Virus record (IMG/VR): IMGVR_UViG_3300014962_000009
Location: 1 to 55,836 of that record
DNA: 55,836 nt
From: a virus
Taxonomy: Duplodnaviria > Caudoviricetes
Reading direction: 5' to 3' (one strand)
Made by a program: the position numbers and the translations under genes. Position 1 is the stretch's first letter. Each line of letters starts with the position of its first letter. The notes below the pieces were generated by a model. That model was not told the origin of the DNA, searched no databases, and was given only the letters and a program-made list of their open reading frames with translations. Positions 8,471-42,195 of the stretch are shown here, piece after piece.

Positions 8471-8898
8471 GGCTTTGGATATTTGGCCTTAATCGCTTCA
8501 ATCTTTGCGGCCATCTCAGCCGCAGCAGCGCCGCCCTTCCACATCGCCCCAAGTTGCTCTGCCAAAGAAGGATATTCAGCGCGGCGCTTAGCGTAATAGT
8601 CTGGCACGTCAGGGCGGACAATCTCTGACTTGTCGATAGGAACAGTCGTTGTCTTACCCGTCATCGGATCAGGAATTTCCCTTGTCTTAGGCGTCAGAGC
8701 TGTCCACGCGGCTTCCTTGGCATCGATGTCAGCCTTGATCGCAGCCTCTTTAGAAGCAAGATAGGCCGACAGATCCGCGCCCGGAGGAACAAAAGTCTGC
8801 CAGTCATAAGACCGACCGTTATGCTGAACTTTCAGATACGCAAGGCTGCGCTCTTCACCTTCAATATTAGAAGCCAACCCTTCAAGAGATACACTCAT
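8467..8898 (-). CDS. Tail-fibre assembly chaperone-like protein
   Basis: C-terminal YYAKRRAEYPSLAEQL...IKAKYPKP, a motif typical of small genes that follow fibre genes. Confidence 0.55.
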   Translation of the reverse strand: MSVSLEGLASNIEGEERSLAYLKVQHNGRSYDWQTFVPPGADLSAYLASKEAAIKADIDAKEAAWTALTPKTREIPDPMTGKTTTVPIDKSEIVRPDVPDYYAKRRAEYPSLAEQLGAMWKGGAAAAEMAAKIEAIKAKYPKP

Positions 8899-10250
8899 TT
8901 TATTGCCTCCAACCTAAAGTTTTTGCCCGGATGCTGCCCAGTTGCGGGCAGAATCTTGATGTCTTTAAATCCCACATGCGTACACAAGTCAGACAACGTC
9001 TTCGGTGTATAGCCCCAGAGATGAGGGGACAATGCACCTTTCTCTTCCGTTTCAGGCGTGATTCTGTCCACATGCGCCCCAAAGATACACATCGCCGTCA
9101 TGTGCTGCTCTGTGCCTTCCTGCTCCAAAAAATCCTTGCACAGCCCTGCCAAGTCCGGCAATTCCATAACAAGTTTGCCGCCTTCCTTCAGTGTGTTCAA
9201 CCATTTTCCCAAAACCTCCGGCGCACGGTGTTGCGGGATATGTTCAATGACATGGCTGGCAAATATCTCGTCAGCGCAGCCCTGAGGCAGATCCAACTTC
9301 ATGATGTCTTGCTTGATGTCGGCCGTGTCGCTGTGCATATCCACGCCCATATAGCCTTCCAAGCGATCCCGCCCACAGCCCATATTGAACCGGATTGGCT
9401 GGCCCTCTGCCATCATTTGGGCAAGGATCGCTTTGTACCCAGCAGTCGCGCCTGTGCCTTCTGGCAGACGATCAGCCCAGCGGCGATCAATGAACTCCTT
9501 GTCGTCCAGCGTCAGCGGTCTGGTCGGCGGGATGTTCGTGTAATAGTTCTTCAAGTCTACAGACGGATGAGCGGTATACATGCCGCTGGCCAAATCCATG
9601 TGCAAACACTGAACGTCCGTATTCACCAACAATTTCGTGCCGCGTTTGTGCAGTCGGTGGACAAAGAAATTGTCCTCACCAATGAACGGGATTTCACCAT
9701 TGATGTTGTTGCCGATGCAGCAAAATGGCATATCCGGCGCTTCTTCTTTCATCTGTTTCAAGAGCGCAATCGGAATCAGCATGATGTCCATACCGGTCTG
9801 CCACGCTTCAATCAACTGCCCCGGATCGACGTTCGGGATGGTGATCCAATCCCCCTCGCGCACCATAATCATCGCGTCTGAACACTTGATGTAATAAACA
9901 CCCGTCACCACCGCGCCGGGGTTTTCTTCGGCGGTCTTCAGCAGCTTCTTGAATCCGTCGTAAGGAACAACCGTGTCCTCGCCGATGAAGAGCATATATT
10001 TAGCCCCTGATTCAAGGGCCTGCTCGATCAGGTAATTGCGGGCCACGTCCACCTTCTCGCCGCCAATGTTCACAAAGCCGTGAGAAAATCCCATCAGGTC
10101 GATGTGCAGCCCTTCGTAACCATCAAAATTTTGTGCTGCGGTTTCTTCTAAGTTCCTTCTAGGCTGAGCAATTACAACGTAAGGTTTTATGGTTTTGGAT
10201 TCGTCGTAAATTTCTTGCATCGTATTTATTATTTTTTCCCTGCTATACAT
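8895..10250 (-). CDS. Glycosyltransferase (GT-A/GT2-like) fused to class I SAM methyltransferase
   Basis: N-terminal ARNYLI...LFIGEDTVVP and GEDNFFVHRL. C-terminal FNMGCG...GVD...ASHVIEH...LKEGG.L.MELPD. Confidence 0.8.
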   Translation of the reverse strand: MYSREKIINTMQEIYDESKTIKPYVVIAQPRRNLEETAAQNFDGYEGLHIDLMGFSHGFVNIGGEKVDVARNYLIEQALESGAKYMLFIGEDTVVPYDGFKKLLKTAEENPGAVVTGVYYIKCSDAMIMVREGDWITIPNVDPGQLIEAWQTGMDIMLIPIALLKQMKEEAPDMPFCCIGNNINGEIPFIGEDNFFVHRLHKRGTKLLVNTDVQCLHMDLASGMYTAHPSVDLKNYYTNIPPTRPLTLDDKEFIDRRWADRLPEGTGATAGYKAILAQMMAEGQPIRFNMGCGRDRLEGYMGVDMHSDTADIKQDIMKLDLPQGCADEIFASHVIEHIPQHRAPEVLGKWLNTLKEGGKLVMELPDLAGLCKDFLEQEGTEQHMTAMCIFGAHVDRITPETEEKGALSPHLWGYTPKTLSDLCTHVGFKDIKILPATGQHPGKNFRLEAIK

Positions 10251-34987: not shown

Positions 34988-35178
34988 CTATGTCTCCCAT
35001 AAACCGCAGCCATCAGGCGGCTAACCTTCTCTGGCGGCGTAAGGCCCCTGCTCTTATATATGCTCTCAGAACGGCAGGCTAGGCAGTCAGCGCAGATCCA
35101 GCGCCTAGTCCGGCGAAGCTTCCTGTCCTCTCCGCCCTCTTCAGTCTTCTTGCTCTGGCAGGATGTGCAGAATCTCAT
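34984..35178 (-). CDS. Small Zn-ribbon protein A
   Basis: FCTSC...RRWICADC. Confidence 0.65.
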   Translation of the reverse strand: MRFCTSCQSKKTEEGGEDRKLRRTRRWICADCLACRSESIYKSRGLTPPEKVSRLMAAVYGRHR

Positions 35179-35693
35179 TTGGCCTTTGCTTGCTTATTGA
35201 GCTCAAGGTTCTGCAGCAGGGTGTCGAAGATCTTGGACTCCACATTCACCTCTAGCGGGTTCTCAGCGTCACCAGCAAGGATCTGGCGCTCACCATACTT
35301 CTTTGGCTTCAGCTTGGCTGCAATCCACTTCCGAGCGTCTATGCGGTTCTTCTGCCATGTCACCCACCCGCTATCAGTGCGGCTCACACCCTTGTCATCA
35401 ACAACCTCAGCAGGCGGCTCGTCAGCAATTGCTTGTATTTCATCAGCAAGCGTATCTGCCTGCTCATCCCTAGCTCTCGCGTAGTTCTCTGAAAATTGCT
35501 TATTCTGCAACAGCCAAAGATAGACAGTGCTTTGTACTGGCATCTTCTCTTCCATGCATATTTGTCTCAGTGATTCTCCACATGAGATTCTTGTGCATAT
35601 CTCTGCTGCTAGTACGGGATCGTATTCTGTCTTGCGCCCGGCTCTTTTTCGGGGCTTTGGTTGCGCTTCGGCAACTGTAGTGGGATCAGACAT
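35175..35693 (-). CDS. terS: Terminase small subunit
   Basis: IC..I..GESLR.IC...MP...TVY.WL...F...YARAR...ID.RKW.A.KL.PKKYG (Sf6/P22-type TerS). Confidence 0.9.
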   Translation of the reverse strand: MSDPTTVAEAQPKPRKRAGRKTEYDPVLAAEICTRISCGESLRQICMEEKMPVQSTVYLWLLQNKQFSENYARARDEQADTLADEIQAIADEPPAEVVDDKGVSRTDSGWVTWQKNRIDARKWIAAKLKPKKYGERQILAGDAENPLEVNVESKIFDTLLQNLELNKQAKAK

Positions 35694-36218: not shown

Positions 36219-36390
36219 ACCCCCGCAGAGTTTTGGCTAAGCGGGCACGTTGACCTACCTTGCCGGGTTTCTTTGCGGCAGCTTCGAGTTTCTTTGCGGG
36301 AATGTTCTTTCCCTCGGGAACTTTAAGCGCTTTGCGCAGCGATCCCGGTTGCTGAATTGCCTTCTGTATCCACTTCTCCGACATTTTCAT
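36211..36390 (-). CDS. Small basic conserved phage protein
   Basis: KWIQKAI..PG.LR..L....G..IP..KL..AA..PG..G.RARLA.TL. Confidence 0.7.
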   Translation of the reverse strand: MKMSEKWIQKAIQQPGSLRKALKVPEGKNIPAKKLEAAAKKPGKVGQRARLAKTLRGFD

Positions 36391-36547
36391 TCCCCTGAGC
36401 AATAGGCAACTGAGGCGTAGCCTGCAATTGAATATTGTTGATCATTGGAGCCGACTGGTTAAAAGGCAAGGTGCCCAGTAACGTCAACAGATGATTAACC
36501 TCTTCAAGATTATATTGCAGCGTAATGTGGATGTCTTTGTTTTCCAT
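36323..36547 (-). CDS. Hypothetical protein
   Basis: EEVN.LL..LG.LPF.Q....I..I..QA.PQ. Confidence 0.55.
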   Translation of the reverse strand: MENKDIHITLQYNLEEVNHLLTLLGTLPFNQSAPMINNIQLQATPQLPIAQGNENVGEVDTEGNSATGIAAQSA

Positions 36548-36565
36548 TGTCAATCCTGAATTGGT

Positions 36566-36630
36566 GGGTCAGGCTGCAGTGTTGGGGTGAACTGACCAAA
36601 GTCCCCATAACCAGCACCGCAGCCCTTCCC
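36566..36630 (-). ncRNA. Long imperfect hairpin (leader, or last unit of the RNA array)
   Basis: GGGCTGCGGTGCTGG...CCAACACTGCAGCCT; TATAAT just upstream at 36637-36642. Confidence 0.4.
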
Positions 36631-36658
36631 GTTAAGATTATATGCCACCTATAAGTTA

Positions 36659-36737
36659 GGTTGTTGGCAAGCTTTTACAGTCGAGCCTACTTGTCCGTAT
36701 TCTTTCAACGGTGAGCTGATAGCTGTGCTTACCAACA
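36659..36737 (-). ncRNA. RNA array unit A
   Basis: Closing stem TGTTGGTAAGC...GCTTGCCAACA. Confidence 0.55.
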
Positions 36738-36816
36738 CGGCTGAGGACTGGCGCACAACGTCAACCAGCGAACCGATCTTTAGTTGCACTTGTAACCAAT
36801 CCTCATGCGTGTTGGT
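36731..36816 (-). ncRNA. RNA array unit B (ACGCATG/CAGCCGT scaffold)
   Basis: ACCAACACGCATGAGGATTGG-[44 nt]-CCAGTCCTCAGCCGTGTTGGT. Confidence 0.65.
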
Positions 36817-36932
36817 TGTTGGTGGCCGGTGCTGATCTCCGGCTTACTGCGTCCTCTCGCACTTCCCGCAGTCGGTACTTCGACAAAAGCTTTAGTGAGG
36901 AACGGGCGTATCAGCCTACGCATTCACCAACA
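36817..36932 (-). ncRNA. RNA array unit C, tRNA-like scaffold with loop-loop pairing
   Basis: TGTTGGTG-AAT-GCGTA-GGCTGA-TACGC...GCCGG-AGATCAGCA-CCGGC-CACCAACA; the loops GCTGA and TCAGC are complementary. Confidence 0.7.
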
Positions 36933-37005
36933 CGGCTGGAAAGGCTGCACCCATCGGCCGTGTGCGATATGCCACTGTCACCCTTCGCCTCCCCATGCGT
37001 CTTAG
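36927..37005 (-). ncRNA. RNA array unit D (second ACGCATG/CAGCCGT scaffold)
   Basis: CTAAGACGCATGGGGAGGC-[41 nt]-GCCTTTCCAGCCGTGTTGG. Confidence 0.6.
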
Positions 37006-37092
37006 CCCCCGTCTTTCCGGGGTGTCAGGTACTCGCTGCGTCTGTGGCGAGGCGCTCTCCCCGCTGCGGCTTTCACAGCATCCGCTTTCCCC
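37006..37092 (-). ncRNA. RNA array unit E plus small hairpin
   Basis: GGGAAAGCGGATGCTGTG...CACAGACGCAGCGAGTACC, then CCCCG-GAAAGA-CGGGG. Confidence 0.5.
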
Positions 37093-37114
37093 AATCACTA
37101 CTTTAACTCAAGCT

Positions 37115-37312
37115 TTACACTTCTTCCACTGTTACCCTGTATTTCTTGCCGTACCGATCCTCAACGTCAAGGATCTTCTTGGTGGATAGGAAGGCTCCAG
37201 AAGCCGCCAGATGAAGCTGTGGGGCTGAAACGCTGGATAAGAGCTTCTCTACATCATTCGCCTTCAGATTGCCCCGTATAAGGGCTGCAATGTAATCACA
37301 GTAAGCCAGCAT
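37115..37312 (-). CDS. Hypothetical protein
   Basis: 65 aa, STKK...V.D..G..YRVTVEE. Confidence 0.6.
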   Translation of the reverse strand: MLAYCDYIAALIRGNLKANDVEKLLSSVSAPQLHLAASGAFLSTKKILDVEDRYGKKYRVTVEEV

Positions 37313-39983: not shown

Positions 39984-40171
39984 TTCCAATCCCCCTTTTC
40001 ACCTCGATTTCCAAGTTTCCATTGATTCGCCACTTCATTCCGGAGCTTCTGACTGTCATGGTTCTTTTCCCACATTCGCAAAAACTCATAAGCCTTATCC
40101 CTGTCTTCAATCCGCATTCGGATAACTTCTCGAACGAGACACTGCCATATTTCGGTTTGTACATCCGTCAA
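39980..40171 (-). CDS. Hypothetical protein
   Basis: 63 aa, QW.LGNRG..GDW. Confidence 0.6.
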   Translation of the reverse strand: MTDVQTEIWQCLVREVIRMRIEDRDKAYEFLRMWEKNHDSQKLRNEVANQWKLGNRGEKGDWK

Positions 40172-41112
40172 AAATCACCCTTCTGATCAAACGCCATTGG
40201 CATTCCATTGTGCTTATCAATGAATTGCTGGCTGTCATTATGAAAATAAAACTCGAACCAAGGTTCGCGTTCCCCGTTTCTTTGTTTCTCGCACATCAGG
40301 TAAGCATCCGGGATCATCGGATCAACGTCCTCACCACGCTCCAGACTATGCTGCTTCTTCTTATTGCGCCACAGAATCAGAACATTGTCCACCTGATCCG
40401 TAATAGAAGATGATCCACGAAGGTCTGACTTGCTCGGACGGACTTCCTCACTTGCCAACTTACGTATGTGGTGAACCAGATGGATGTGAATGTCATTATC
40501 ACGGGCAATTGCCGTAAGCTTGTCCACAAAGTTCTTTTGCTCATTGTATGAATCCTCCCCCGGTACGCACTTCATCAGGCTATCAATGAACATGTGCTGG
40601 ACACCCAGCTTGGTCGCGCAGTGATGGCATACAGCCTCAATCATTTGGGCATTGACCGTGCCCTGCTGGTCGTACAAGTAAAGCTTTTTGTCCACAAAGA
40701 TCTTGAACCGTCCGTAGGCATCCCGCTTCTGGGAATCAGGCGTCTGAACGTAATGATTGGACTCAAGAGACTTCCCGGCAAACTGCCTGATCATTCGCTT
40801 CAGGGTGATCTTTGGCTTCATCTCAAAGCTGGCAATGCAGATCTTCTGCCCCTGCTTCATGAGCCCCAGAGCAACCTGACCAGTCATCAGGGATTTACCA
40901 GAGCCGTTGCTGCCAGCCCAGACAGTGACTTCGCCGGGACGAAAGGCAAAGCTATCAACCGTAATGCTCCATGGCAACATGACTGATCGATCCACCGGCG
41001 GATTGATCAACTCCTCTTCCAATTCGTCTACCCAGACTCTGGCTTCCTTGACCTTTGCTTCGTGGTCAGTCATCGCCAGATAGGCATCAAAATCAATATC
41101 GTCGTCATTCAG
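40168..41112 (-). CDS. DnaB/T7 gp4-like replicative helicase
   Basis: RPGEVTVWAGSNGSGKS Walker A, SFEM, IDSL, HLVHH.RK, D.RGS..I.D..DNV, KQRNG. Confidence 0.88.
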   Translation of the reverse strand: MNDDDIDFDAYLAMTDHEAKVKEARVWVDELEEELINPPVDRSVMLPWSITVDSFAFRPGEVTVWAGSNGSGKSLMTGQVALGLMKQGQKICIASFEMKPKITLKRMIRQFAGKSLESNHYVQTPDSQKRDAYGRFKIFVDKKLYLYDQQGTVNAQMIEAVCHHCATKLGVQHMFIDSLMKCVPGEDSYNEQKNFVDKLTAIARDNDIHIHLVHHIRKLASEEVRPSKSDLRGSSSITDQVDNVLILWRNKKKQHSLERGEDVDPMIPDAYLMCEKQRNGEREPWFEFYFHNDSQQFIDKHNGMPMAFDQKGDF

Positions 41113-41449
41113 GTACATAGCAATCCCATTCGCCGTTTTCGCTATCAATTATCAAATCACCAACTACAGTGATCACCCTTCTTGCTGCTGCCTTCTTCAA
41201 AGCATCGTGCAGTTTCTTTGCAATTTTGTAATCGTTACAGCCTGAGACATGCACCGTCAGACCAACAACAAACCGCAGATCAAGCGTCTCAGGATTCTCC
41301 GTCGGCAAGATCTCGATTTCTGGGTACGGCAGGGTATCTGCGTACAGATGCCATGTCATGCAGTGAAGAGAGGGCCTGTGGCTTATCCAGACGCCCTGTG
41401 GGCGCTTTTTTTCACTGCGGAGGGTCAGCAGTGCTTGATGACCTCTCAT
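41105..41449 (-). CDS. Hypothetical protein in the replication operon
   Basis: LDLRFVVGL.V.V motif; between initiator and helicase. Confidence 0.6.
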   Translation of the reverse strand: MRGHQALLTLRSEKKRPQGVWISHRPSLHCMTWHLYADTLPYPEIEILPTENPETLDLRFVVGLTVHVSGCNDYKIAKKLHDALKKAAARRVITVVGDLIIDSENGEWDCYVPE

Positions 41450-42195
41450 GAGCTTGTAGCCCGTTTTGGAGCCCAGTCGGGCATCCCAGCTTTAACAGCA
41501 GGTTTGGCATAGCTATCGTTTTTCAGCCAATCGGCGTTGAACCCACCCCAACCCCGCTCGCAGCAAATCGTAATCGCCTGCTGCAAGGTCAAACCAGCTT
41601 TTACGGCTTCCCGTTTGATGGCCTCTAGAGCCGTGTCAGTCATCGGTAATTTTTTAGCCTTTCTGACTTGCAAGAAATCATCCCAAAGAGAATCAGACAC
41701 GCCTTCAGGCGGCTTCTGCTTTTTGTTTTTTATTGGGTTAATGGGTTTATGGGTAGCATCATTTTTTGATTCTGCAGCATTGCTCGAGGTATGCTGCAGC
41801 ATAACTGTTGCATTGCTCTGGCTGTCCTGCGGCATTCCAAGGGCATTGTGCAAATCAACATGCTCTTGATGCTGCTGCATTGCCGCTGCATCTTTCCATC
41901 GTTTCATGGCTTTGTTCCGAGCAACTTCAGATTTTGCGTAAACCTTTGAAAGCTCTTCGTCACAACGGGTATGCCGCCAAAAATCATTTTCCAAATAAAA
42001 ATAAGATTGCAATATCAACAACACCTTTTCTCGTGTTGCACCAATCTGAAAAGCCAGCATGTCGGGATCATTTGGCAACGGACGCTCAGTGTCGTAATAC
42101 GTCCACATAAGCTTCAGGTATGACATCTTGTCAGCATCTGACAAAGACGAGGTGGCTTTTAAAAAGTCACCGATATGGTGGCTGTAATAATGCAT
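41446..42195 (-). CDS. Replication initiator, YdaU/DUF1376 family
   Basis: MHYY.HHIGDF...T..LS.....Y..L...YY..E.PL...H.RCD.E; C-terminal W.DF...RK.KK...C.ERGW.GF.A.W. Confidence 0.82.
   Translation of the reverse strand: MHYYSHHIGDFLKATSSLSDADKMSYLKLMWTYYDTERPLPNDPDMLAFQIGATREKVLLILQSYFYLENDFWRHTRCDEELSKVYAKSEVARNKAMKRWKDAAAMQQHQEHVDLHNALGMPQDSQSNATVMLQHTSSNAAESKNDATHKPINPIKNKKQKPPEGVSDSLWDDFLQVRKAKKLPMTDTALEAIKREAVKAGLTLQQAITICCERGWGGFNADWLKNDSYAKPAVKAGMPDWAPKRATSS

Follow-up and report, generated by a model that had tools for sequence, protein, structure and literature searches.

The stretch at positions 37094-36563 of the phage genome studied here, read on the minus strand, is an array of seven stem-closed RNA modules, which we consider, with slightly better than even confidence, to be a polycistronic array of stable-RNA cassettes that would be cut out by the host enzymes that mature tRNAs. 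Distinct modules, covarying stems, constant frames and the exchange of inserts (here termed cargos) between frames are all observed, and related frames that hold different contents are found in hundreds of phages, P1 and Shiga-toxin phages among them. The array has the replication genes on one side and the packaging operon on the other in the window, that is, the whole stretch of DNA analysed, a phage record of 55,836 bp (55.8 kb) with a CheckV completeness of 99%.

The array contains no credible gene, as the initial annotation had proposed for about 530 nt at this position. A protein-coding reading was rejected, as none of the six overlapping ORFs (46-96 aa) has a match in Pfam or PHROG. Folding of a 541-nt stretch gave z = -4.4 against 100 shuffles. 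ARAGORN found no tRNA gene in the window, and the tRNA model RF00005 gave no match there, either at gathering score or at E up to 10. The idea that individual scaffolds may match phage motifs in Rfam did not survive, since Rfam returned nothing for the window at gathering score and, at E up to 10, two chance-level matches only. Searches of 19 array-bearing loci (143 kb in total) and of four enterobacterial loci returned tRNAs only, with no ROOL or GOLLD RNA in the former. The promoter and terminator scan of the minus strand gave no consensus promoter directly 5' of unit E.

Units E, D, C, B and A and a final hairpin, all read on this strand in the initial annotation, are present (Table 1); hairpin h is an addition to that description, and unit F, the final hairpin, reaches 3 nt past the start given there. 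Relatives of hairpin h precede leader hairpins at three other loci (L277, L199 and L029), with GAAAGA or GACAGA as the loop and a stem that covaries (CCUCG/CGAGG, GCCG/CGGC). Because the ACC of unit E overlaps the stem of hairpin h, the role of ACC in the window copy is uncertain.

Table 1. Modules of the array and their parts, in 5' to 3' order on the minus strand.
Feature	Position	Strand	Description
Unit E	37021..37094	-	E frame; exact 3' motif located in window
Unit E, P1	37094-37090 with 37029-37025	-	UUGGG/CCUGA
Unit E, invariant 5' part	37089-37078	-	GAAAGCGGAUGC
Unit E, P2 and cargo	37077-37043	-	35-nt cargo
Unit E, invariant 3' part	37042-37030	-	GACGCAGCGAGUA
Unit E, tail	37024-37021	-	C-ACC
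Hairpin h	37007..37022	-	CCCCG-GAAAGA-CGGGG, CUGAC just before; between E and D
Unit D	36932..37000	-	Leader-hairpin frame: ACG, CAU/AGC internal loop, 8-bp upper stem, cargo, AGC, CGU
Unit D, cargo	36986-36946	-	41 nt
Unit C	36814..36932	-	tRNA-mimic frame: acceptor-like stem, D-like and T-like hairpins, variable centre
Unit C, acceptor-like stem	36932-36925 with 36824-36817	-	UGUUGGUG/CACCAACA
Unit C, D-like hairpin	36921-36906	-	GCGUA-GGCUGA-UACGC
Unit C, T-like hairpin	36843-36825	-	GCCGG-AGAUCAGCA-CCGGC
Unit C, ACC	36816-36814	-	After acceptor-like stem
Unit B	36737..36810	-	Leader-hairpin frame: CCAAC-ACG, CAU/AGC loop, 9-bp upper stem, cargo, AGC, CGU
Unit B, cargo	36795-36752	-	44 nt
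Unit A	36659..36737	-	Closing stem UGUUGGUAAGC/GCUUGCCAACA, then ACC at 36661-36659
Unit A, conserved core motif	36725-36678	-	
TATAAT	36637..36642	-	-10-like hexamer, 6 nt 5' of unit F; putative promoter element
Unit F	36563..36630	-	GGG/CCC closing stem, AA/UGA loop, 10-bp stem, cargo GGGGACUUUGGUCAGUUCACCCC
Unit F, ACC	36565-36563	-	After CCC

Units D and B are built on a common scaffold, ACG-CAU...AGC-CGUGUUGG, and the internal loop seen in it from the start (CAT/AGC in DNA letters) is indeed shared. CAGCCGTGTTGG occurs exactly twice in the window (36927-36938 and 36732-36743), and there are two occurrences of the direct repeat ACCAACACGGCTG. The upper stems differ yet pair around inserts of 41 and 44 nt, again in agreement with the first reading: GGGGAGGC with GCCUUUCC in D (8 bp, including two G-U pairs) and GAGGAUUGG with CCAGUCCUC in B (9 bp), the latter unit being found as an inverted repeat as well. 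UGUUGG, the 3' strand of D and B, is also the 5' strand of C and A, both of which close with CCAACAACC, a sequence present in the window only at 36814-36822 and 36659-36667; the doubling of this strand and the common 3' end had both been recognized correctly. UGUUGG thus has two pairing options. Upstream, it can pair with CCAAC-ACG, giving a leader helix of ~20 bp; downstream, it can pair with CCAACA to form the acceptor-like stem, which leaves AGCCGU single-stranded 5' of it. The sharing of this strand supports the earlier view that neighboring stems are mutually exclusive. P1-like, Ackermannviridae and lambdoid phages preserve the three-strand interlock in other letters, and its conservation suggests that folding and cutting follow a programmed order, which would be of general interest for RNA processing.

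Unit C, first taken for a loop display, is instead a tRNA-shaped frame and a full cloverleaf-like mimic: it has a four-arm layout with non-tRNA loops, its loops GCUGA and UCAGC are complementary, and a centre of ~59 nt stands where a tRNA has its anticodon arm. More generally, frames E, C/A and F present a short closing helix followed by ACC, an arrangement that resembles the acceptor end of tRNAs. In 65 of 113 E copies, ACC directly adjoins the last base of P1, irrespective of the length of this helix (3 to 7 bp), and in 53 of these copies the helix is preceded by C. Among the leader-frame matches listed, CCARCA is followed by ACC in 38 of 86 copies and by ACT in 10 of 86. The ACC tail is absent in 30-40% of freshwater copies. 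Units C, A and F have the arrangement of an RNase P substrate, a helix 3' strand and then R-C-C. According to the accessible text of PMC11143913, RNase P RNA pairs with D73, C74 and C75, its GGU contacting R-C-C, and pre-4.5S RNA is a natural substrate of the enzyme.

The frames recur far beyond the window. At least 107 distinct copies of the E frame, with cargos of 13-92 nt, are found in viral contigs; among these listed copies, the P1 pairs are 98, 99, 99 and 89% paired and covary, and P2 opens with UA/CG/UG, then GC/AU pairs. The AGUA/GAA of this frame is presumably of the sarcin-ricin type. The E frame was also seen on six bacterial contigs, including Cupriavidus, Fluviibacter and an uncultured betaproteobacterium. 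The D/B leader-hairpin frame has at least 118 distinct copies in viral contigs, with eight upper-stem pairs that are 85-92% paired. Twelve distinct copies of the C frame have centres of 42-152 nt and D-like and T-like inner stems that covary, and the acceptor-like stem is compensatory between lineages (UGUUGGUG/CACCAACA, GUUGUGGUG/CACCACAAC and GUUGUGAUG/CAUCACAAC). In each of these three sets, constant adaptor stems hold a differing folded RNA.

Closer relatives display the same behavior. In the syntenic relative L038, the frames are kept with other cargos, an extra small ORF and a relocated unit F. Contigs of four other samples retain the frames and skip cargo, the skipped part being 36751-36795 in the case of unit B, and metagenome contigs keep the C frame with a replaced centre, the joints lying at 36843-36845 to 36905-36920. 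Modules also occur singly, in other orders and in other numbers. Constant, covarying scaffolds with exchangeable inserts and a variable number of units, the comparative pattern that the initial annotation called for, were therefore found, and they support its proposal of a phage-encoded array of structured small RNAs.

Among the matches listed, at least 293 distinct cargos fall into at least 221 clusters, of which 173 are singletons. Nine of the 221 listed clusters occur in more than one type of frame, at least one of these being a nesting artefact; the cluster of the unit D cargo includes two AC-frame cargos from other loci, one of them L157. The unit F cargo occurs on 10 viral contigs in two different frames (the F frame and an E-like one), and most copies end in a helix and ACC, with AAC in L281, L284 and L287. 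Compared with shuffles, the cargos have mean z scores of -0.97 (E), -0.74 (leader hairpin) and -0.43 (AC); as they are only mildly structured, single-stranded display of some of them is possible. The number of clusters bears out the variability first ascribed to the inserts, but the core of unit A departs from it, being nearly invariant and having a covarying fold of its own.

This core (~50 nt) is 94-98% identical in 50 phage records found by blastn, where it lies within tRNA arrays, and it is present in 35 viral contigs. Its holders include T4-like and other phages, unrelated to one another and with different hosts; no Escherichia phage is among the 50 records. The fold has 14 pairs, 97.5% paired as opposed to 20-35% when slid, with five pairs changed on both sides, and on three of five measures none of 500 shuffles scored as high. 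Copies in a plain stem are found no more than 300 nt from a same-strand tRNA in 17 of 26 cases, mostly at 20-42 nt, and the remaining 13 copies are embedded in E, leader or AC frames at loci in which ARAGORN found no same-strand tRNA. A role for the core as a mimic of a host RNA was considered and rejected: the 59-nt core has no match in 5,426 E. coli genomes by blastn at E up to 10. It has none in plasmids either.

The proximity to tRNAs extends to whole arrays. The last cassette is followed by tRNA-Met at four loci, 6 nt past CAACAACC in L170, 5 nt past CGACAACC in L223, and also in L210 and L236. At L194, GUUGGUG/CACCAAC is the acceptor stem of a tRNA scored by Rfam (40.9 bits), directly behind a leader hairpin. 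The orientation of the arrays is always that of the flanking genes and tRNAs.

In enterobacteria, the C frame is present in 735 of 5426 complete E. coli genomes (approximately one in seven) and in 131 phage records, including P1-like and Stx2 phages, where it is unannotated. In the P1-like phage JL22, the C-type layout follows tRNA-Asn and tRNA-Thr; in lambdoid prophages, including Stx2 prophages, the C-frame element adjoins the repressor gene. These enterobacterial relatives have AGCC, ACAAC or CCAAU after the stem in place of ACC. In the CPS-53 prophage of E. coli K-12, the gap before yfdP is without the element, and the P1-like, lambdoid and Klebsiella loci gave no match to C4 (RF01695) at E up to 0.1. 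The assessment that the interlocked array is not a described system agrees with both Rfam and the searched literature: no description of the frames or core was found in openly searchable papers. The Pas sRNAs of 10.64898/2026.05.13.724894 map elsewhere in prophages, close to the esterase, holin and Q genes, and the accessible parts of 10.64898/2025.12.28.696737 and PMC10695390 do not mention these frame RNAs.

How such an array would be expressed we infer from sequence, and this applies to transcription, to each cleavage step and to function; none of the sequencing runs listed with this DNA is recorded as RNA. The acceptor-like stems, which directly follow the leader hairpins D and B, would be cleaved on their 5' side by RNase P; the leader helix in its long form may be a substrate of RNase III; and exonucleases would trim the 3' ends to the helix and ACC. 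Terminal C residues block RNase T. The products would be stable small RNAs, a natural counterpart of the engineered 'tRNA scaffold', with the cargo of frame C in place of the anticodon arm and complementary loops in place of the elbow. Because RNase P binds a single-stranded leader, an abutting leader hairpin could hinder it, and the model therefore needs the strand switch to free the leader. Processing by host RNase P and/or RNase III, as first proposed, is plausible in view of the tRNA-end mimicry, the ACC after the closing helix, the adjacent tRNAs in relatives and the ~20-bp leader hairpins. Our best guess is that, instead of serving as guides, the cargos bind to proteins or ligands or work as decoys. 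A protein partner encoded nearby was rejected; the commonest neighboring protein cluster occurs at 26 of 111 loci, and no TROVE gene was found.

The alternative that survives best, although we regard it as unlikely, is that the frames are cis-acting mRNA leaders and the cassettes not independent small RNAs. E and F would lie at, or become, the 5' terminus of a message shortly upstream of a ribosome-binding site, and would stabilize this message, control its translation or act on polymerase, in the way that HK022 put RNA acts on the transcribing polymerase. In 76 of 103 E copies, an ORF of at least 45 aa starts no more than 70 nt past the frame, usually at a distance of 15-20 nt, and a promoter-like site placed to start at P1 is present in 15 of 109 copies, compared with 0-1 at six control offsets. 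TATAAT lies 6 nt before F in four relatives (CATATAAT, or CATACAAT in L286, at the same distance in the window, L038, L099 and L286), uncalled by the consensus scan because it has no good -35, and unit F is followed by AGGA and, 16 nt past its end, by the ATG of the next ORF (36547). The scan also gave no terminator-like site after unit F on the minus strand. From the P1-placed sites and the TATAAT before F, it follows that some units may need no 5' cut, and that some may act in cis as mRNA leaders. However, unit E of the window precedes five more cassettes and not a gene, the same cargos recur within tRNA arrays and within D/B and C/A frames that are remote from any start codon, and a need for about 200 different cargos is left unexplained. 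Nor do E cargos show complementarity to adjacent sequence, the comparisons covering 70 nt downstream, 82 nt upstream and 400 nt downstream (z = 0.03, -0.17 and -0.16).

More doubtful still is the initial proposal that the cassettes are scaffolded antisense or guide RNAs against host or rival-phage transcripts, organized like a CRISPR array without Cas; such RNAs could also work in the manner of P1 C4 and P4 CI RNAs after their processing by RNase P. The high diversity of cargos, with so many singletons among the matches listed, and their mild structure would suit such a role, phage antisense RNAs with variable loops that are processed by RNase P provide a precedent, and in lambdoid prophages the element is beside the repressor gene. 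Yet neither the phage's own genome nor adjacent sequence contains more complementary words than expected: 24 antisense matches of at least 10 nt to the genome were counted, where 200 shuffles average 18.7, the longest of them, 12 nt, has a length that shuffled sequence commonly gives, and the adjacent z values are close to 0, in tests that cover the phage genome and adjacent sequence and are insensitive to host targets and to short kissing loops of the P1 C4 kind. In addition, the cargo with the best sampling hardly varies among phages of different hosts and possesses a covarying fold itself, and the C4 family of Rfam is unmatched. The likeness to CRISPR, in which constant elements alternate with variable ones, does not extend further, since the 'spacers' of the array are structured modules of 35-100 nt and unequal length, some of them conserved. 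Regular repeats of CRISPR length are absent from 36400-37300, where the longest exact repeats are 13-14 nt, in two copies (spacing 195 for the 13-nt repeat), and the largest family comprises three 9-nt copies, irregularly spaced (277 and 406 nt). No Cas family was found in 10 neighboring small ORFs (Pfam) or eight ORFs (PHROGs), using general libraries only.

It is very unlikely that all 530 nt form a single large ornate RNA, folded or assembled as one in the manner of ROOL or GOLLD, RNAs that lie near tRNAs in phages. The dense structure and the location by tRNAs in relatives would fit, and the interlocking strands could be long-range contacts, but neither ROOL, GOLLD nor any other family was matched in Rfam at E up to 10, and the modules are single, reordered or present in other numbers in relatives. 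We consider it hardly credible that the repeats act as DNA (cassette recombination sites, an origin or a packaging site, with hairpins in single-stranded DNA only), despite the clear exchange of cargos between frames and the location just upstream of the terminase genes, given the strand-specific G-U pairs (upper stem of D, P1 of E), the constant orientation and the tRNA-like shapes. Exchange at the DNA level may still be how cargos moved.

If the reading as stable-RNA cassettes is correct, phages would make many stable small RNAs without proteins of their own, the host tRNA enzymes doing the cutting, and the array would be the natural form of a trick independently invented by biotechnologists. 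Tentatively, we suggest that a plug-and-play system for expressing effector RNAs, which hijacks tRNA maturation, may be common to phages ranging from freshwater podovirus-like ones to P1, Ackermannviridae and Stx2 prophages. The tRNA-mimic frames and strand-switching leaders would release and stabilize hundreds of different effector RNAs (aptamers, decoys or sponges), whose targets might be conserved host machinery or anti-phage defence; decoys for tRNA-cutting nucleases would be one example. Because the element in lambdoid prophages is in a rex-like position by the repressor, effectors might take part in exclusion in lysogens. The frames mark a large uncatalogued pool of phage RNA, with no fewer than 221 cargo clusters, and the occurrence of the C frame in P1, Stx2 phages and about one in seven complete E. 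coli genomes makes it testable in standard laboratory systems.

Several known systems share features with the array. P1 C4 and P4 CI are RNAs that RNase P releases from operon transcripts; their closing stem is tRNA-like and their loops are variable. The array differs in having no RF01695 match in the window (gathering score and E up to 10), no targets nearby and cargos that are far larger and more varied. The irregular RNase III hairpins of T7-type phages, of ~20 bp with an internal loop, lie between the units of a polycistronic transcript, and the long form of D/B resembles them in layout (7-8 bp, a 3x3 loop, 8-9 bp); D and B, by contrast, hold cargo and are coupled to the next stem. The TMERs of MHV68 combine tRNA-like structures with hairpins, from which host tRNA enzymes release small RNAs; they belong to a eukaryotic virus, depend on RNase Z and Dicer, place the tRNA-like part before the hairpins and have no interlock. 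Y RNA/YrlA (RF02553) is likewise modular, with a constant handle and a tRNA-like module. In Y RNA, Ro60 is bound by the constant handle and the tRNA-like module serves as cargo, whereas in the array the tRNA-like part is the frame; the window has no RF02553 match at gathering score or E up to 10, and TROVE (PF05731) has no match in the 55,836-bp record, controls being positive in two of 14 named genomes.

Closer parallels are provided by T4 and by engineering. T4 rnaC and rnaD (species 1 and 2 RNA) are structured non-tRNAs that are cotranscribed with tRNAs and matured by the tRNA-processing machinery, and the core of unit A similarly sits in phage tRNA arrays. To our knowledge, the T4 RNAs do not use interchangeable frames; unlike their locus, the window is without any tRNA, and the blastn records holding the core are without an Escherichia phage. 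The tRNA scaffold engineered in E. coli by Ponchon and Dardel works by the same principle of frame and insert and, according to the accessible text of PMC3753655, has the layout of unit C: the insert replaces the anticodon arm, the acceptor stem and the T and D arms are kept, and the chimera is processed by the cell and stable. The phage array is natural and forms its elbow from complementary loops instead of a contact between T-loop and D-loop, and it adds the E and F frames, the leader hairpins and the interlocking of units.

Read on the minus strand, positions 37094-36563 of this genome (an entire IMG/VR virus record, 55,836 bp long, CheckV completeness 99%) form seven stem-closed RNA modules, in which constant frames hold variable inserts, here called cargos. 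The structural details given in the initial annotation are all borne out in the sequence of this strand: units D and B share the scaffold ACG-CAU...AGC-CGUGUUGG, their upper stems differ in letters but still pair and enclose 41 and 44 nt, UGUUGG serves D/B as 3′ strand and C/A as 5′ strand, and CCAACAACC terminates both C and A. The genome has no further occurrence of CCAACAACC, the 12-mer CAGCCGTGTTGG of the D/B scaffold has exactly two occurrences in the window, and the array stretch folds with z = -4.4. As also claimed, there is no credible gene here, the six overlapping ORFs (46-96 aa) having no Pfam or PHROG match; the suggested Rfam run on the window matched nothing. The array corresponds to no Rfam family, RefSeq E. 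coli annotation or description in the searchable literature. New here are the statistics of tRNA-end mimicry, the link between a core motif in unit A and tRNA arrays, unit C as a putative tRNA mimic, the occurrence in P1-like and Stx2 phages and many E. coli prophages, an interlock that is conserved from lineage to lineage, and tests of the guide reading with negative outcome.

Array modules and neighbouring genes, with coordinates in the window
Feature	Coordinates	Strand	Remark
E	37094-37021	minus	read in sequence
h (small hairpin)	37022-37007	minus	read in sequence
D	37000-36932	minus	read in sequence
C	36932-36814	minus	read in sequence
B	36810-36737	minus	read in sequence
A	36737-36659	minus	read in sequence
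F	36630-36563	minus	read in sequence
Primase/helicase	40168-41148	minus	upstream of array
Primosomal/O-like protein	41446-42195	minus	upstream of array, then small ORFs
Sf6-type small terminase	35175-35693	minus	downstream of array; Pfam E = 1e-38

All genes around the array lie on the minus strand, those downstream being small ORFs, the small and large terminase subunits and the portal. Two small minus-strand ORFs, of 76 aa (36323-36553) and 65 aa (37115-37312), flank the array; the syntenic relative L038 conserves both, and neither matches a Pfam or PHROG family. The window contains no tRNA gene and, at 99% completeness, no TROVE/Ro60 gene; no close relative was found in the phage collection. 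Bearing on the host, both halves of the E frame are present in six bacterial contigs, including Cupriavidus gilardii, Fluviibacter and an uncultured betaproteobacterium; three of the six (MAG or unclassified) may be binned phage DNA.

The mutually exclusive neighbouring stems proposed initially are retained, with other letters, in three lineages compared by eye: CCAAC-ACG-CAU-(stem, cargo)-AGC-CGU-GUUGG...CCAACA in freshwater contigs, (G)CAAC-GAU-GAGGGCAUU...AGUGCUCUC-AGC-GUUGUGGUG...CACCACAAC in lambdoid phages, and CACAAC-A-GGUAAGGG...CCCUUACC-GUUGUGAUG...CAUCACAAC-ACAACA-GGUAAGGG... in P1 and Magnus. In every lineage, two like-sequenced partners are open to the strand that follows the leader hairpin (the D/B frame): it can pair with one that precedes the hairpin or with one located behind the next cargo. 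Because the three strands of this interlock changed together in each lineage, it provides the strongest sign that the alternative pairings may be functional.

The compared loci contain 159 occurrences of CAG[C/T]CGTGTTGG, 103 with ACGNATG upstream, the others including chance matches within genes. Among the matches listed, 118 distinct leader hairpins have an 8-bp upper stem (85-92% paired, mostly GRGGAUUG/CAGUCYYC); their 5′ flank (CAAC or CAAG) can pair with GUUGG, in 62-92% of copies per position, and CCARCA follows within 260 nt in 86 of the 118, with ACC behind it in 38/86 and ACT in 10/86 of these C/A frames. Hairpins lacking CCARCA, among those displayed, mostly have variants such as CACCAAC-U or CAUCAAC. 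The cargo of F was found in 10 contigs within two different frames, its copies mostly ending in a helix plus ACC (AAC in L281, L284 and L287); TATAAT 6 nt upstream of F is common to four relatives, with CATACAAT in L286. E-like frames with F cargo retain only GAAAGCGGAUG and GAGCGAGUA.

A scan with a 15-mer from the 3′ strand of the E frame identified at least 120 viral contigs. Over the 107 distinct copies among the matches listed, the four pairs of the outer stem P1 are 98, 99, 99 and 89% paired, with UA, AU, CG and GU as variants, the strands GAAAGCGGAUGC and GACGCAGCGAGUA are invariant, and the inner stem P2 opens with UA, CG or UG, then GC or AU. Cargo lengths among the matches listed are 13-92 nt. 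Also among these matches, P1 is directly followed by ACC in 65/113 copies, irrespective of its length (3-7 bp); C precedes P1 in 53 of the 65, and the letter after ACC is U in 41, C in 14 and A in 10. In 76/103 copies listed, the start of an ORF of 45 aa or more lies within 70 nt downstream, and in 15/109 a promoter-like site is positioned for a transcription start at P1, compared with 0-1 at six control offsets. In the window's own E frame, the two invariant strands (37078-37089 and 37030-37042) set AGUA opposite GAA beside P1, an arrangement that we take to be the signature of the sarcin-ricin/loop-E (bulged-G) motif, a common protein-binding module.

Cargos are swapped between frames. The matches listed contain 293 distinct cargos (leader hairpins 122, E frames 110, C/A frames 61), which fall into at least 221 clusters, 173 of them singletons; nine clusters span more than one frame type, at least one being a nesting artefact. 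By eye, the core was found in four contexts, a tRNA-like cargo in an E frame (L135) and a C/A frame (L190), the cargo of D inside a C/A frame (L157), and the inner part of E closed by GUGUUGG/CCAACAACC in L116, L127, L170 and L198. L038 has the same flanking genes and frames, but its cargos differ, a small ORF follows E, and F is located elsewhere; contigs from four other samples match the frames, the B and C cargo being skipped or replaced. Cargo structure is only mildly above shuffles (mean z -0.43 to -0.97). The L038 ORF, absent from the window, lies inside the RNA array between E and F, starts ~15 nt after CCAACAACC and encodes 48 aa with a signal-peptide-like start and many Cys; its cluster occurs in 11/111 loci.

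Judged by its layout across 12 distinct copies, unit C is a predicted tRNA mimic: an acceptor-like stem UGUUGGUG, AA, a D-like hairpin GCGCA-GGCUGA-UGCGC that covaries (GCGUA/UACGC, GCGAA/UUCGC, GUGCA/UGCAC), a variable centre of 42-152 nt, a T-like hairpin GCCGG-AGAUCAGCA-CCGGC covarying to GCCAG/CUGGC, and the 3′ strand CACCAACA followed in most copies by AC and C or U. The loops GCUGA and UCAGC are complementary and both invariant, which places them outside the reach of covariation. A weak blastn match led to Klebsiella phage ST11-OXA245phi3.2, whose unit C frame has the stem GUUGUGGUG/CACCACAAC; with its 161-nt copy as blastn query, two frame halves around a variable centre were found in 735/5,426 complete E. 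coli genomes and 131 phage records, including Klebsiella (60), Escherichia (37), Stx2-converting phages, mEp460, P1, P1-like phages and the Ackermannviridae phage Magnus. E. coli K-12 is without the element. It is unannotated, or lies under 'hypothetical protein' or opposite plp, and Rfam found only neighbouring tRNAs at these loci. In P1-like JL22 the frame lies behind tRNA-Asn and tRNA-Thr; in E. coli CE10, mEp460 and an Stx2a phage it stands downstream of a CI-like repressor that shares its strand, and its end is a terminator-like hairpin with a U run. This site beside the repressor of lambdoid prophages points to a possible role in lysogens.

Lambdoid E. coli prophages, an Stx2a phage among them (L292 ~1230-1695, L291, L294), have a ~470-nt unannotated RNA-like unit downstream of that repressor, with a ~200-nt domain closed by GUUGUAAC/UGCAAC, then leader hairpin, unit-C-type mimic and terminator; CE10 and the Stx2a phage have different leader-hairpin cargos, that of the Stx2a phage containing T-arm-like hairpins. 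In JL22 (L290 1420-1750) the array overlaps the annotated opposite-strand lipoprotein gene plp; either that gene or the RNA reading calls for a check in P1. In Magnus (L295 400-3230), a run of annotated 30-70 aa 'hypothetical proteins' covers a region with a unit-C-type frame and T-arm-like hairpins; these ORFs are probably spurious calls made across an RNA array.

The core connects the array with tRNAs. A blastn search of 50,697 phage records with a 901-nt query matched 50, of which 49 (Aeromonas, Enterobacter, Acinetobacter, Salmonella, Serratia and Pseudomonas phages) are confined to window 36679-36726, mostly at 94-98% identity; the other, a Klebsiella prophage, matches the frame of unit C. 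In three records inspected, the core is unannotated inside a tRNA array, on the tRNAs' strand. Exact pattern matching located it in 35 viral contigs. When 34 distinct copies are aligned without gaps, pairing across the 14 proposed pairs reaches 97.5%, versus 20-35% when slid, and five pairs are altered on both sides; 0/500 shuffles reached the observed value on three of five measures, and 1/500 reached the count of both-side-changed pairs. The closing stem varies among copies; 33/89 aligned columns are invariant. A plain stem closes 26/39 occurrences, 17 of these with a same-strand tRNA within 300 nt (mostly 20-42 nt); the other 13 sit in C/A (6), E (5) or D/B (2) frames, and ARAGORN found no same-strand tRNA in their loci. 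The core RNA is thus either tRNA-flanked or wrapped in a window-type frame. No look-alike was found in E. coli genomes or plasmids. The near-invariance of the core in phages whose hosts are distant suggests a possible conserved target in the host.

tRNA-Met lies behind the last cassette in L170 (6 nt after CAACAACC), L223 (5 nt after CGACAACC), L210 and L236. In L194, from an uncultured phage, a 98-nt tRNA (8825-8922 on the locus's minus strand; Rfam 40.9 bits, gathering score 29) has GUUGGUG/CACCAAC, directly behind a leader hairpin, as its acceptor stem. ARAGORN calls it tRNA-Stop with anticodon UUA, and it may represent a suppressor tRNA that contains a long insert.

The guide or antisense role first proposed for the inserts gave no signal in antisense tests against the phage's own genome and the sequence adjoining E cargos. 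That the frames are cis-acting leaders is a live rival, since transcripts probably begin at some E and F copies, with genes following them. No protein neighbour is shared (best cluster in 26/111 loci). We read the frames as putative processing and stability signals, mainly because the core is either tRNA-flanked or frame-wrapped. According to PMC11143913, the GGU of RNase P RNA pairs with substrate D73, C74 and C75, and the enzyme also cleaves pre-4.5S RNA and minimal acceptor/T-stem helices. A helix plus ACC is present in units C, A and F and in most E copies, and the following letter, mostly U and not A, would suit recognition by a nuclease better than aminoacylation. However, ACC is absent in a third of copies and in all enterobacterial relatives inspected, and that of the window's own E is buried in hairpin h. 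With UGUUGG paired downstream, only ACG/CGU and the CAU/AGC loop would stay below the leader hairpin, freeing AGCCGU as a single-stranded leader; with UGUUGG paired upstream, the leader helix would have 7-8 bp and 8-9 bp on either side of a 3x3 loop, as large as an RNase III site. From the helix plus ACC, the strand switch and this helix size, we infer that the chain would be cut in order into stable RNAs, in the manner of engineered tRNA scaffolds (PMC3753655).
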